From a virus: a DNA stretch of 35,647 nucleotides. A program made the position numbers and the translations under genes. The stretch spans positions 1 through 35,647 of the IMG/VR virus record IMGVR_UViG_3300045988_088582; one strand, 5' to 3'. The notes under the pieces were generated by a model. That model saw only the letters and a program-made list of their open reading frames with translations, had not been told where the DNA came from and did not search any database. This document shows, one piece after another, positions 156 through 35,647 of the stretch (the stretch's first letter is position 1; each line of letters starts with the position of its first letter).

Positions 156-1311
156 ATTCCTCGGTGTCCGGGGCGTACTCGGCTAGCACTCCGGAGATGG
201 TCTGAGCAGTGGCAACATCACGACCCGTGACATCATGTGCGTACCAGCCGAAGGTATCCATGCTGCGGCTGTGGCCGACCATGCGGCGCAGCTGAGCGGG
301 TGATACCGCATCCGCAACCATGCTGACAAAGGTGTGCCGCAGTTCGTACAGGCTGATGGGTGGGTCAATGCCGTTGCAGCGCTGATAGAACCTCCAATAG
401 TTATACAGGCTCTGCTGGTTGGACAGCAGAAACAGCGGATCGTCATTCGTCAGCGGTCGCTCCTCTTCCATCGTGCGCTGCCGGAGCTGGGCATGGATCT
501 CGTTCACGGCCAGAGGGTGCAATACCACCGTCCGGATGGCATTCTCATTTTTGCCGCTGGTCTCCTCGTTCTGGCGGTTGATGGCCCGGCCAATGTGGAG
601 CCGGTCTCCGTCCAGATCGCCTACACGCAGGCCCAGCAGTTCTCCGGGGCGCAGGCCGGTCATTACGGCCAGACGGTAGGCGTGCACGTTCTCGTCCGGC
701 TCCACTTTTCCACGAACCACACGGGTATCGGTGGAGAGCAGCACCCGCAGGCTGTCCGGCTGCAGAATCTTCCGCCCCTTCTGGCGAGCACCCTTCGGAA
801 CGGTCAGGTTTTCATCCTCTGGCCGCAGGGTCGTGTACTTATGCTGGCGTGCCCACTTGACAAAGGATACCTCCACGCCACGGATGCCCTGCAGCGTCTT
901 ACGGGAAAGATTGCCCCGGCTCTGGCGCTTGCTGTTCGGATTCAGACAGCCCTCTTTATACGCTCGGTTAAGTACGTCCTGCAGCATTCCTGTGCTCAGG
1001 TCGCCAATCTGCCGGGTACCGATCACTGGCAGGATGTAATTTCGCCCATTCTTTTCTACCTGTTCAATGTAGCTGGTGCCTGCCGTAGCCTTGACAGAGA
1101 TCAGATACTCAGCCCACACCTCAGAGCAGCGCTTTGTGGTATTGCAGATTCCGTCATCCAGCCATGCGTCTGCCTTCCGGTTGGCTTCCCGCTGACCGGT
1201 GCGGCCCGGCTTTGCACTGGTGAACGTCCTGCGCTGGCCGTCCTTCTGCACCTTGATCTGCCAGCGTTTCTGGTTCGGCAGCCACTGGGCGGTATTGGTT
1301 CTTCGTCCCAT
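154..1311 (-). CDS. int: Tyrosine recombinase / phage integrase
   Basis: N-terminus MGRRTNTAQWLPNQKRWQIKV.. looks like an arm-binding domain. C-terminal ELRHTF..GHSRSMDTFGWYAH matches the HxxR...Y catalytic signature. ATG at 1311 is preceded by GGAGG with a 9-nt spacer; the ORF-track extension to 1458 has no support. Confidence 0.93.
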   Translation of the reverse strand: MGRRTNTAQWLPNQKRWQIKVQKDGQRRTFTSAKPGRTGQREANRKADAWLDDGICNTTKRCSEVWAEYLISVKATAGTSYIEQVEKNGRNYILPVIGTRQIGDLSTGMLQDVLNRAYKEGCLNPNSKRQSRGNLSRKTLQGIRGVEVSFVKWARQHKYTTLRPEDENLTVPKGARQKGRKILQPDSLRVLLSTDTRVVRGKVEPDENVHAYRLAVMTGLRPGELLGLRVGDLDGDRLHIGRAINRQNEETSGKNENAIRTVVLHPLAVNEIHAQLRQRTMEEERPLTNDDPLFLLSNQQSLYNYWRFYQRCNGIDPPISLYELRHTFVSMVADAVSPAQLRRMVGHSRSMDTFGWYAHDVTGRDVATAQTISGVLAEYAPDTEE

Positions 1312-1413
1312 AAAAATACACCTCCATGGGTACACTTTGACAAGCCCGCCCAAAAGAGGTATAATCGCAGTGTCGAGTGTGCGATGCCCTCTTCTGGGTG
1401 AGCCGCTTCTTTT

Positions 1414-1452
1414 AACGCCTTCGGTGCGCCAACACCGGGGCGTTTTTCTTTT
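1414..1452 (+). terminator. Intrinsic-terminator-like hairpin on the plus strand, antisense to int and its upstream gene
   Basis: AACGCC(1414-1419)/GGCGTT(1439-1444) plus inner CGGTG/CACCG, followed by TTTTTCTTTTG. The flank on the other side is not A-rich, so it is oriented for the plus strand only. Confidence 0.45.
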
Positions 1453-1531
1453 GTTCAACTACCGAGGATTCCTCGGCAACTCATAGACCAATAGCACTAT
1501 TTGCAAACGGCAAAACCGTTAGCTTTTCAGT

Positions 1532-20837: not shown

Positions 20838-20914
20838 GCCGTCTTAGCTCATTCTGGAAGAGCGCCGGTCTCCAAAACCGGAAGCGGGAGGTTCGATGCC
20901 TCCAGACGGTGCCA
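20838..20914 (+). tRNA. Phage-encoded tRNA-Trp (anticodon CCA), with encoded 3' CCA
   Basis: Manual cloverleaf: acceptor GCCGTCT/AGACGGT (G1-U72); D arm GCTC-ATTCTGGAA-GAGC; anticodon arm CCGGT-CTCCAAA-ACCGG; variable loop AAGCG; T arm GGAGG-TTCGATG-CCTCC; discriminator G; CCA. U8, A14, G18G19, U33 and T54-C56 are all present. Confidence 0.9.
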
Positions 20915-33015: not shown

Positions 33016-33201
33016 ATGAAAACGCTGAACAACCTGAAACTCCGCATCATGGTGCGGGCATTCCGCATCCGGCTGAACAACGGCGAAGCCTTTGAGGCAA
33101 TCGCAGCGGATTACCCTGCCCTGACCGCTGACGACCTGGAAGCTATCCACGTCCAGCTGACCGAGAAGGAGGCGCAGAGCAATGCCCAGAACCATACTTG
33201 A
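33016..33201 (+). CDS. Small hypothetical protein (XkdX-position)
   Basis: ATG at 33016 is 7 nt after GGAGGT. 61 aa. Overlaps the endolysin start by 20 nt. Confidence 0.5.
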   Translation: MKTLNNLKLRIMVRAFRIRLNNGEAFEAIAADYPALTADDLEAIHVQLTEKEAQSNAQNHT

Positions 33202-33835
33202 CGTTTCCCGCTGGCAGGGCCGCATTGACTGGGACAAGGTCAAGGCAAGCGGCCTTGTCTCCGGCGTGATGATCCGGGCCATGGGCAACAGCAAAGAGGG
33301 CAAGCCCAGCAAACCCTACATCGACCCCTTCTTTGCCCGCAACTACGCCGAGTGCACCCGACTGGGCATCCCGGTGGGCGTGTACGGCTACTTCAAGGCA
33401 ACCACCAAGGCACAGGCCGACAAGGAGCTGGCCCTGTTCAAGAAGGCGCTGGGCGGCAGAACGTTCCAGCTGCCGGTGGCCGTGGACATCGAGGACAAGC
33501 TGCAGGAGGCCCTGAGCAAGGCCACCCTGACTGACATCGTGGCCCACTGCCTGAGCGTGGTGGAGAGCTGGGGCGTGTACGCCATGCTCTACACCGGCCT
33601 GAACTTCGGGCAGACCAACCTTTACATGGGCGGCGCGGCCCTCAAGCCCTACGACGTATGGCTGGCAGCCTATCGCACCAAGAAGCCCGCCCCCGGCTGG
33701 CCCTTTGGGATGTGGCAGTACACCAGCAGCGGCAAGATCCCCGGCATCGCCAAGGGCGCAGACCTGAGCGTGGCCTACAAGGACTACGCGGGCATCATCC
33801 AGCGGGCCGGACTGACGAAAGTGAGAGGAGCATAA
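33182..33835 (+). CDS. GH25 muramidase endolysin (catalytic domain only)
   Basis: ILDVSRWQGRIDWDKV..GVMIRA...VGVYGYF...VAVDIED carries the GH25 signature motifs. 217 aa, so there is no room for a wall-binding domain. Confidence 0.88.
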   Translation: MPRTILDVSRWQGRIDWDKVKASGLVSGVMIRAMGNSKEGKPSKPYIDPFFARNYAECTRLGIPVGVYGYFKATTKAQADKELALFKKALGGRTFQLPVAVDIEDKLQEALSKATLTDIVAHCLSVVESWGVYAMLYTGLNFGQTNLYMGGAALKPYDVWLAAYRTKKPAPGWPFGMWQYTSSGKIPGIAKGADLSVAYKDYAGIIQRAGLTKVRGA

Positions 33836-33838
33836 GTG

Positions 33839-34141
33839 ATGAGCAAGAAGCTTTTTATCAGCCAGCCTATGAACGGCCTATCGGACGAGCAGGTGCTCCA
33901 GGAGCGTGCCGCAGTGATCGGGAAGGCAAAGGCCGTGTTTGGTGACGATGCGGTTCCTCTGGAAACGTTCTTTGAGGACTTTGGCCCCGATGCGAAGCCG
34001 CTGGATTATCTGGCACGCAGCATCGAGTTTCTGGCTAAGGCTGACGTGGCGGTTTTCGCCCCGGGCTGGGAGTACGCACGCGGCTGCCGCATTGAGCGGC
34101 AGTGCGCCGAGGAATACGGTATTCCGGTAATGGAGGTGTGA
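33839..34141 (+). CDS. DUF4406-like protein (nucleoside 2-deoxyribosyltransferase-like fold family)
   Basis: KLFISQPMNG at the N-terminus and ADVAVFAPGWEYARGCRIERQCAEEYGIPV at the C-terminus match the DUF4406 pattern. Confidence 0.6.
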   Translation: MSKKLFISQPMNGLSDEQVLQERAAVIGKAKAVFGDDAVPLETFFEDFGPDAKPLDYLARSIEFLAKADVAVFAPGWEYARGCRIERQCAEEYGIPVMEV

Positions 34142-34714: not shown

Positions 34715-34987
34715 ATGAACGCACACATCACTGGGAACAACACCCCCGCCATCCCCGCCGCGACCATCGCCCGCACTGTTGTGCTGGCACTGGCCCTCGT
34801 CAATCAGCTGCTGAGTGCAGCAGGCAAGCCGGTGCTGCCCATCGACAGCGCCAGCGTGGAGCAGTGGGTGACGGCTGGCCTGACCACCGCTGCCGCCATC
34901 TGGGCATGGTGGGAGAACAACAGCTTTACTCCCGAGGCCATCCGCGCCGATGAGCTGCTGGATCAGATGCAGGGGAAGATCAAGTAA
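34715..34987 (+). CDS. Holin, SPP1/XhlB-like family
   Basis: IARTVVLALALVNQLLSAAGKPV...AAAIWAWWENNSFTPEA parallels XhlB (..LLAIALLNQ...AAWFKNNYIT). Two TM segments. Confidence 0.8.
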   Translation: MNAHITGNNTPAIPAATIARTVVLALALVNQLLSAAGKPVLPIDSASVEQWVTAGLTTAAAIWAWWENNSFTPEAIRADELLDQMQGKIK

Positions 34988-34999
34988 GAGTACATAGCA

Positions 35000-35043
35000 A
35001 CAGCCCCGAGGAACCATCTGGCTCCCCGGGGCTGTTTTCTTTT
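35000..35043 (+). terminator. Intrinsic terminator ending the late/lysis operon
   Basis: ACAGCCCCG (35000-35008) pairs with CGGGGCTGT (35027-35035), followed by TTTTCTTTT. Confidence 0.75.
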
Positions 35044-35110
35044 GGCATATTTCGGCATATTCCGACGCATTCCGCATTATCCGGCACATTCTGACATTTT
35101 CCGGTTAAAG
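35041..35110 (+). repeat. Degenerate ~10-bp tandem repeat array upstream of the Spo0A_C gene
   Basis: tttggcatat / ttcggcatat / tccgacgcat / tccgcattat / ccggcacatt / ctgacatttt / ccggttaaag. The period is visible directly in the 10-nt print blocks. Confidence 0.6.
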
Positions 35111-35134
35111 TTGGATGGAAAGGATGTGCAAACT

Positions 35135-35482
35135 ATGCCTGACATGAAAATTTCGGACTCCCCTGCCCAGCTGGATCAAATCCTCCGGCCACTGGGAATC
35201 ACCCGGAGCTCAAAGAATTACCGTGTTCTCTGCGACTGCGTGGCTCTGATCTGTGAACAGGAGGACCGGCTGGAAGCCGTACAAAAGGAGATCTATACCC
35301 CCATCTCAGACCAGCGGCGCTGCAAGTGGTCCGCCATTCAAAGTGCCGTCCGGCGTGCAGCAGAGAAAGCCTGGGCGCTGAACCCCGAGGGCGTTCAGCA
35401 ACTGGCTGGCTACCCACTGACCGGTGCACCCAGCGCGGTGCAGTTCTTGGAGATGCTTTACAATGCCGTGGTGAGAGGGTAA
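35135..35482 (+). CDS. Stand-alone Spo0A C-terminal (DNA-binding) domain protein, with no receiver domain
   Basis: LRPLGITRSSKNYRVLCDCVALI...EIYTPISDQRRCKWSAIQSAVRRAAEKAW...GAPSAVQFLEML aligns by eye with B. subtilis Spo0A [20 protein letters not shown]...[28 protein letters not shown]...KPTNSEFIAMV. Confidence 0.8.
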   Translation: MPDMKISDSPAQLDQILRPLGITRSSKNYRVLCDCVALICEQEDRLEAVQKEIYTPISDQRRCKWSAIQSAVRRAAEKAWALNPEGVQQLAGYPLTGAPSAVQFLEMLYNAVVRG

Positions 35483-35488
35483 CGAAAC

Positions 35489-35527
35489 GGCTGCCATGCG
35501 AGTGTGATGCGTGGCAGCCTATTTTTG
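35489..35527 (+). terminator. Intrinsic terminator after the Spo0A_C gene
   Basis: GGCTGCCA (35489-35496) pairs with TGGCAGCC (35512-35519), extended by CATGCG/TGCGTG, followed by TATTTTTG. Confidence 0.7.
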
Positions 35528-35551: not shown

Positions 35552-35574
35552 AAAAGTGGGTTTGACTGTGGGTT
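35552..35574 (+). promoter_or_regulatory. Putative integrase arm-type binding sites, right arm (2 x GTGGGTT, 12-bp spacing)
   Basis: AAAAGTGGGTT at 35552-35562 and GACTGTGGGTT at 35564-35574. Same orientation and spacing as 133-155. Confidence 0.55.
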
Positions 35575-35578
35575 ACAG

Positions 35579-35619
35579 CAAAAGAAAAACACCCAGAAAC
35601 TCACGTTTCTAGGTGTTTT
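35579..35619 (-). terminator. Intrinsic terminator for the flanking tRNA gene, carried on the prophage side of attR
   Basis: Minus strand: AAAACACC-T-AGAAAC GTGA GTTTCT-G-GGTGTTTT, followed by TCTTTTG. It starts 5 nt downstream of the tRNA CCA end. Confidence 0.65.
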
Positions 35620-35623
35620 ATCT

Positions 35624-35647
35624 TGGTGGGCGCGGGTGGATTCGAAC
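35624..35647 (-). tRNA. 3' end of a host tRNA gene (T-loop, 3' T-stem, 3' acceptor strand, discriminator A, CCA), truncated by the window edge
   Basis: The minus strand reads GTTCGAATCCACCCGCGCCCACCA. Identity cannot be assigned because the anticodon lies outside the window. Confidence 0.75.
35627..35647. repeat. attR core
   Basis: Identical to 1-21. Confidence 0.85.

Follow-up and report, generated by a model that had tools for sequence, protein, structure and literature searches.

The DNA analysed here is the IMG/VR virus record IMGVR_UViG_3300045988_088582, and its whole length of 35,647 nucleotides (nt), referred to below as the window, is a complete prophage extending from attL to attR. 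Its last gene encodes a protein of 115 amino acids that consists of the DNA-binding effector domain of Spo0A (Spo0A_C) and carries no receiver domain; directly upstream lies an array of seven 10-bp units resembling the 0A boxes recognised by Spo0A. The region from 34999 to 35527, in which this gene and array stand between two intrinsic terminators, is best explained as a transferable regulatory cassette that temperate Faecalibacterium phages carry between their lysis genes and attP. We propose, at roughly even odds (a probability of about 0.5) and on the strength of sequence comparison, that the protein is an autoregulated, phosphorylation-independent transcription factor of the Spo0A type, which would bind its own phased boxes, limit its expression through occupancy of the proximal ones, and also occupy 0A-type boxes elsewhere. 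The elements of the cassette are as follows (positions are those of the window):

34999-35044, plus strand: intrinsic terminator after the holin gene, with 18-nt arms and a U-tract
35041-35110, minus strand: array of seven 10-bp units, TTYGRCA-like on the top strand and 0A-box-like (TGNCGAA) on the minus strand; the strongest boxes begin at 35041 and 35051
35106-35111, plus strand: candidate -10 element TAAAGT, sharing bases with unit 7; a -35 element is not recognisable, and boxes stand in its place
35118-35124, plus strand: ribosome-binding site GAAAGGA, 10 nt before the ATG
35135-35482 including the stop codon, plus strand: stand-alone Spo0A_C gene, 115 amino acids, effector domain only (Pfam PF08769; AlphaFold2 and Foldseek)
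35489-35527, plus strand: intrinsic terminator of the Spo0A_C gene, with a 12-bp stem including 8 GC pairs

The Spo0A_C gene and its product

Profile and structure searches agree on the nature of the protein. The Pfam family Spo0A_C (PF08769) matches residues 15-110 over model positions 3-102 of 104 (E 2.6e-17; 63.2 bits against a gathering cut-off of 25), and the same search returned neither another credible domain in the 115 residues nor a match to Response_reg. The TIGR02875 model, an equivalog of full-length Spo0A, reaches 38.8 bits against its cut-off of 200 and aligns in model positions 147-236 of 262 only, which excludes the protein from that equivalog. Sequence matches in the PDB are 1fc3 and 1lq1, two solved entries of the Spo0A effector domain. 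The AlphaFold2 model, built with 59 homologues, has six helices and a predicted local distance difference test score (pLDDT) of 88.7; when it was compared with the PDB by Foldseek, the best seven matches were all chains of 1fc3 or 1lq1, with template modelling (TM) scores of 0.70-0.82 and root-mean-square deviations of 2.1-3.6 Å, and nothing else came close. An earlier note on this DNA, made from the letters alone, had described the product as a Spo0A C-terminal effector domain without a receiver. Both parts of that description are borne out, the first by the profile score and the structural superposition, the second by the length of the protein, the missing Response_reg match, and the fact that the array and a terminator fill the DNA upstream. 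As the receiver domain is absent, the protein would need no phosphorylation; the isolated DNA-binding domain of Spo0A binds its targets in the unphosphorylated state (PMC3485338).

The position of the gene requires one correction: the plus-strand open reading frame of 115 codons is real, and it occupies 35135-35482, with its ATG at 35135. The ribosome-binding site ahead of it is retained in 56 of 57 distinct upstream sequences. A longer reading frame starting at TTG 35042 (146 amino acids) was considered and ruled out, given that the ribosome-binding site and the ATG are conserved, that the Pfam match begins at residue 15 of the short form, and that the region further upstream changes in units of 10 bp and not in codons.

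The gene is under purifying selection, as follows from 64 synonymous versus 30 non-synonymous variant codons among 27 close alleles; within the recognition helix (residues 64-80) and the AGYPL motif (91-95), residue 68 alone shows a non-synonymous change. Three segments show little or no variation throughout the Faecalibacterium-phage clade, namely LRPLG, the helix A-I-Q-S-x-(I/V)-R-R-A-A…AW, and AGYPL.

Homologues of the protein are numerous and similarly built. A word-indexed search gave 257 hits, the best 120 of which are mostly 110-120 amino acids long with PF08769 as the single domain, and an exhaustive search of representatives (50% identity clusters) gave 576 clusters at E <= 0.001. Since nearly all of the best 150 of these 576 are stand-alone proteins of 105-135 amino acids with no other domain, stand-alone Spo0A_C proteins constitute a large family of their own. 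No receiver-plus-effector protein occurs among those 150 representatives; P0237 is a fusion to ABC_tran. The 90%-identity cluster that contains the window gene comprises 1167 sequences, one member of which is found on 217 contigs, and the PHROGs family of stand-alone Spo0A_C proteins, phrog_24603, is annotated as of unknown function. The family also includes metagenomic proteins with three to four tandem Spo0A_C domains, namely P0156 (394 amino acids; L097, 547-1731), P0191 (439 amino acids) and P0228 (454 amino acids), along with the two-domain forms P0229 and P0259. These multi-domain proteins may be covalent analogues of monomers lined up on phased boxes. A search of viral contigs found no relatives of P0147.

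The phased array and its occurrence across phages

The seven units between 35041 and 35110 read exactly as they had been listed in the earlier note. Their periodicity is pronounced: the identity of the array to itself at a lag of 10 is 0.57, against 0.25±0.06 in 5000 dinucleotide shuffles, none of which (0/5000) reached the observed value, and in the 35.6 kb of the window the 70-nt segments attaining 0.57 are exclusively those that overlap the array. The claim that TTCGGCA at 35051-35057 is TGCCGAA on the minus strand, and thus matches the 0A-box consensus, holds as far as the match goes; a single exact TGNCGAA is not significant in itself, because the window contains 33 such matches where about 18 are expected from shuffles. 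The significance rests instead on the phased array together with its conservation.

Comparison of the units across loci points to a 0A-type site. Column counts over 63 units read T-T-C-G-(A/G)-C-(A/C), and a matrix derived from the other loci only is most informative at T1, C3, G4 and C6, while position 5 is a degenerate purine (consensus TTCGRCA). On its complementary strand the 0A box TGNCGAA reads TTCGNCA, in which C3, G4 and C6 are the partners of G5, C4 and G2; at these three bases Spo0A makes its specific contacts in the core box TGTCGAA (PMC3485338). Scanned over the window, the matrix gives its top two scores at 35041 and 35051, and five hits of at least 8 bits fall in 10-bp register within the array. 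These comparisons support the view that the array is 0A-box-like.

The locus comparison covered 80 viral and 9 genome loci. The upstream regions of the homologues fall into clades of diverged sequence, in which the protein is about 51-80% identical to that of the window, and a phased array lies directly 5' of the gene in every clade representative examined, down to approximately 51% identity. When 12 clade representatives were anchored on the -10-like TTCGGTTAAAGT or a variant of it, all of them (12/12) showed six further units in exact 10-bp register, and in 14 of 17 diverged representatives the observed lag-10 periodicity was reached by no more than 7 of 500 shuffles. The clade of the L066 type (51% identity) has two boxes only, TTCGACTtctTTCGACA, and lacks the -10-like anchor. 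Stand-alone Spo0A_C genes in unrelated clades have phased boxes as well: L093, from a clade with 39% identity, has phased boxes (TGTCGAAatgTGCCGAA) upstream in the opposite orientation, and the second of two adjacent genes at L095, in a chromosomal context, is preceded by four phased TGTCNAA units. At the latter locus (L095, 2501-3360) the two genes lie by genes for ABC-F and RNase III, and the first of them has an inverted pair of TGTCGAA upstream.

The array likewise stays with the gene when the neighbouring integration module changes. The Spo0A_C gene usually follows endolysin and holin genes and, where the sequence continues, an opposite-strand recombinase comes next. Depending on the phage, this recombinase is of one of three types: a tyrosine integrase, a large serine recombinase or an Aster-type integrase. 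In L002 (MT835697, 21081-22527), L006, L040, L041, L046 and others, the end formed by the holin and Spo0A_C genes is joined to a large serine recombinase and not to a tyrosine integrase; the divergence of these loci right past CTTGGTGG at the core indicates that the integration module has been swapped. In phage Aster (PP479941, deposited as a complete genome), orf27 is a homologue with 61% identity that abuts the integrase. That the array moves with the gene across diverged clades and recombinase backbones fits autoregulation.

Both terminators that delimit the cassette are strong hairpins, in agreement with the earlier proposal that the gene forms its own unit between them. The hairpin after the holin gene (34999-35036) has a folding energy of -26.5 kcal/mol (z -4.35) and is followed by UUUUCUUUU; that of the Spo0A_C gene (35489-35519) has -22.5 kcal/mol (z -4.09) and is followed by the U-tract UAUUUUUGCUU. 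Relative to Faecalibacterium phage FP_Lugh (L001, 33958-33993) and most relatives, the hairpin behind the holin gene is present in reverse-complement orientation, with its stem retained. Between the terminators, unit 7 combined with a TANANT element is retained in 46 of the 57 distinct upstream sequences, usually 13 nt ahead of the ribosome-binding site, and we read TAAAGT as a putative -10 element from this sequence context. With regard to a possible moron (lysogenic-conversion cassette), as which the earlier note saw the gene, the two terminators and the location between late genes and att are confirmed, and the promoter is a candidate read from the conserved TANANT. No Rfam family reached its gathering score in the leader or the array.

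Phage carriage and prophage map

The Spo0A_C gene is true phage cargo, because it is carried by an attP junction contig. In this IMG/VR contig (L014), 35426-35647 of the window is fused to 1-347 through a single copy of the core, and the gene order reads holin, Spo0A_C gene, attP, integrase. In the window the gene adjoins attR, as had been stated before, being the last gene ahead of it at a distance of 145 nt from the core. The other features of the prophage that bear on this arrangement are the following:

1-21, no strand assigned: attL core TGGGCGCGGGTGGATTCGAAC, 21 nt, with the same letters as 35627-35647; one copy joins the ends of the window in the attP contig
157-1458, minus strand: tyrosine integrase (PHROG phrog_1, E 2.6e-38); the integrase region of FP_Lugh has 97% DNA identity
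2274-2912, minus strand: LexA/CI-type repressor
33182-33832: endolysin
34715-34984, plus strand: holin gene, closing the lysis cassette and lying immediately 5' of the Spo0A_C unit (PHROG phrog_263, E 5.3e-26)
35556-35574, plus strand: pair of GTGGGTT, 12 bp apart (35556 and 35568), mirrored by a pair at 137-155 (137 and 149); candidate integrase arm-type sites
35586-35619, minus strand: terminator that the phage contributes to the rebuilt tRNA-Tyr (-23.4 kcal/mol, z -6.55), with a minus-strand U-tract behind it
35624-35647, minus strand: 3' end of tRNA-Tyr(GTA), cut by the end of the window; the full tRNA stands at the equivalent place in five loci
35627-35647, within the tRNA-Tyr: attR core TGGGCGCGGGTGGATTCGAAC, 21 nt, the reverse complement of the tRNA 3' end

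The complete minus-strand tRNA-Tyr(GTA) is found in the near-identical loci L004, L005, L023, L027 and L032, where it begins 141-145 nt past the stop codon of the Spo0A_C gene. The phage side of attR (35586-35626, minus strand) brings a strong terminator directly behind the rebuilt 3' end of this tRNA. Four of the five GTGGGTT copies in the window make up the two same-orientation pairs. Each pair lies at a distance of 60-135 bp from one of the att cores, and the pairs are likely the arm-type sites of the integrase.

The prophage is Lughvirus-like, with about 94% identity to FP_Lugh over 57% of a 25-kb query (10648-35647). Lugh is carried by the strains listed as C_4574 and C_4543 in Cornuault et al. 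The GenBank record of FP_Lugh (L001, NC_047912) stops at the equivalent of position 35116 of the window, past the array and 19 nt short of the Spo0A_C start codon, and the Lughvirus type genome may thus be missing its final gene. At its other end the record begins 171 nt to the left of the att core and has a partial copy of the core at 1-16 (L001, 1-193 and 34075). The possibility raised by this record end, that the Spo0A_C gene is host DNA outside the prophage, was ruled out: the gene lies inside the att repeats and on the attP junction contig, and the borders of FP_Lugh were set in silico (PMC5883640).

Elsewhere in the prophage, a phage-encoded tRNA-Trp(CCA) at 20838-20914 in the head-gene region is also present in FP_Lugh and MT835697, and a reading frame between the endolysin and holin genes (33836-34138) matches a nucleoside 2-deoxyribosyltransferase among the PHROGs (E 1.2e-16), an odd location for such a gene.

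Regulatory models and known systems

The host genus is Faecalibacterium; the named genome matches are mostly Faecalibacterium metagenome-assembled genomes (MAGs). Two of these MAGs (with L088/L089 and L090/L091) each carry two diverged cassettes, which have 61-63% identity to the window protein and seem to lie on separate prophages. In Table S1 of Galperin et al. (2022), F. prausnitzii A2-165 appears among the non-spore-formers, although it has spo0A and 75 of 112 core sporulation COGs, and these authors place all Spo0A-encoding organisms in their alignment of the receiver and DNA-binding domains; a Spo0A-type partner or competitor in the host therefore probably exists. A proteome paper on A2-165 reports 'Spo0A homolog' proteins. 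Full-length Spo0A was found in none of the nine loci (0/9) from the scan of genome contigs, a scan made with the phage protein as query.

Based on the structure of the cassette, we propose the following hypothetical mechanism, in which (i) the effector-domain-only protein, a six-helix bundle with a helix-turn-helix, would be produced in the lysogen and work without phosphorylation; (ii) the protein would bind the seven 0A-like units ahead of its own gene; (iii) as the units lie one helical turn apart and point in the same direction, monomers could assemble in a head-to-tail row on a single face of the DNA, in the manner of the Bacillus effector domain on neighbouring 0A boxes; (iv) expression would be adjusted homeostatically, with low occupancy helping and high occupancy occluding transcription; and (v) 0A-type boxes at other places in the cell would likewise be bound, with the protein either mimicking the host Spo0A or competing with it, in both cases independently of signals. 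If TAAAGT serves as the -10 element, the units would span from about -78 to -9, with the best boxes distal (about -78 to -49) and the weaker ones over the -35 position and the -10, and it is from this distribution that we infer the homeostatic sign of the regulation. In a non-sporulating host, the genes affected would be those of the remaining Spo0A regulon rather than those for spore formation.

Several observations weigh against this proposal or narrow it. The recognition helix SAIQSAVRRAAEKAW is identical to the canonical Spo0A signature at 7 of 15 positions, and the exchanges include E213->Q, R214->S and H218->R, numbered on a B. subtilis Spo0A sequence, the C-terminal part of which agrees with the 1lq1 alignment. 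The DNA specificity could differ from that of canonical Spo0A, as judged from these substitutions; our literature search on Spo0A-DNA contacts found the contacted bases and not the contacting residues. A consensus promoter scan detected no sigma-70 promoter at the Spo0A_C unit, and scanning the whole window with the box matrix revealed no second box cluster in the prophage, the intergenic region between the repressor and the early genes included, so that the promoter of the gene itself is the sole phage target visible. A full-length Spo0A of the host might read the boxes just as well. Finally, sporulation, which the earlier note had named as a possible target of interference, is weakened in this role: Faecalibacterium is not known to sporulate, and spore formation is not an obvious target in a host listed as a non-spore-former.

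The alternative that survives best, although we regard it as unlikely, treats the array as an input: full-length Spo0A~P of the host would read the boxes, so that the stationary-phase state of the host would switch the phage gene, and the phage protein itself would act elsewhere or compete. The fit of the boxes to the canonical 0A consensus and the non-canonical residues 213 and 214 in the recognition helix of the phage protein are consistent with such an input, as are the listing of spo0A in A2-165 and its inclusion in the alignment of Galperin et al. There is also a precedent for host Spo0A sites in phage genomes, as the Bacillus phages phi29 and Nf carry 0A boxes that couple phage expression to the host Spo0A (PMC2731898). 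In that account the phage provides the sites only and the host the protein, whereas the phage described here has both, with the sites standing solely before the regulator's own gene. This strict association of the array with the Spo0A_C gene, and its presence nowhere else in the prophage, argue against an input from the host. Moreover, phased boxes also precede unrelated stand-alone Spo0A_C genes, chromosomal ones included, which makes self-recognition the simplest explanation.

A regulator internal to the phage, serving for example lysogeny maintenance, the timing of induction or the exclusion of related array-carrying phages with no meaningful effect on a host regulon, appears improbable to us. 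Its fixed place beside attP in many temperate phages, the occurrence of two diverged copies on different prophages in single MAGs and the non-sporulating host would suit such a role. Against it stand the lack of any other box cluster in the prophage, above all in the repressor/early-gene intergenic region, and the near invariance of the recognition helix across clades, which speaks against a specificity of the immunity type. Very improbable is the remaining alternative, that the repeats are not Spo0A-type sites at all and represent integrase arm-type sites, replication iterons, packaging (pac) sites or bent promoter DNA: arm sites or iterons typically take the form of phased direct repeats close to the end of a prophage, and the promoter scan was negative, but about 520 bp and a whole gene separate the array from the core, the array stays with the gene beside three unrelated recombinase families, the GTGGGTT pairs flanking the core are better candidates for arm sites, no Rfam family matched and the unit consensus agrees with the 0A box at the contact positions.

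Known systems offer several points of comparison. The idea that truncated phage spo0A acts without host signals is already published, and we count this as weakening the reading given in the earlier note: Schwartz et al. (2023, mBio, PMC10294663) reported spo0A homologues of human-gut phages truncated to the effector domain and proposed that they act without signals from the host phosphorelay. The genes described there and the one described here are both phage-borne, with the effector domain present and the receiver absent. However, the main text of that study mentions neither 0A boxes nor Faecalibacterium and frames the genes as tools against spore-forming hosts, whereas the host genus here is a non-spore-former; beyond that work, our analysis defines the position of the gene (lysis genes, gene, attP) and the conserved phased box array. 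A targeted literature search found no functional study.

In comparison with the Bacillus Spo0A effector domain (1FC3, 1LQ1), the window protein has the same six-helix fold (TM 0.74-0.82) at 22-25% sequence identity, and it is a separate gene product instead of a part of a response regulator. In the 1LQ1 crystal the domain forms a tandem dimer on neighbouring sites, and the two boxes of the abrB promoter are spaced by 10 bp. Whereas two or three boxes are known for Bacillus Spo0A, seven stand in a row here. Within the wider stand-alone Spo0A_C family, other clades retain V-E-R in the helix (VERNxRT, in contrast to IQSxVRR in the Faecalibacterium-phage clade), and the boxes of the Faecalibacterium phages face the other way relative to the gene and form the longest array among the loci compared. 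A conserved array of this type seems not to have been described before. Three points, in sum, appear to be new: the conserved link of the gene to a phased array of 0A-like units, its constant location after the lysis genes and before attP across recombinase types, and a host genus that does not sporulate.

A broader hypothesis, which we hold to be doubtful, would see Spo0A_C genes and their phased arrays as a self-contained, phosphorylation-independent switch, sharp and self-limiting through head-to-tail polymerisation over up to seven boxes, which temperate phages would have spread through Faecalibacterium, a non-sporulating commensal that is dominant in the gut and has retained spo0A. Such a switch would rewire the remnant Spo0A regulon (stationary phase, persistence and perhaps cryptic sporulation genes) or couple this regulon to the fate of the prophage, and the proteins with three to four domains would be covalent versions of the filament. 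The seven-box array in itself offers a natural system for the cooperative assembly of Spo0A-type domains on phased sites, one that is directly testable in vitro. Should the protein work as a Spo0A-type regulator independent of signals, stationary-phase genes or leftover sporulation genes of a non-sporulating host could be reprogrammed by a prophage gene that is widespread, and this would change how 'phage sporulation genes' are to be read.

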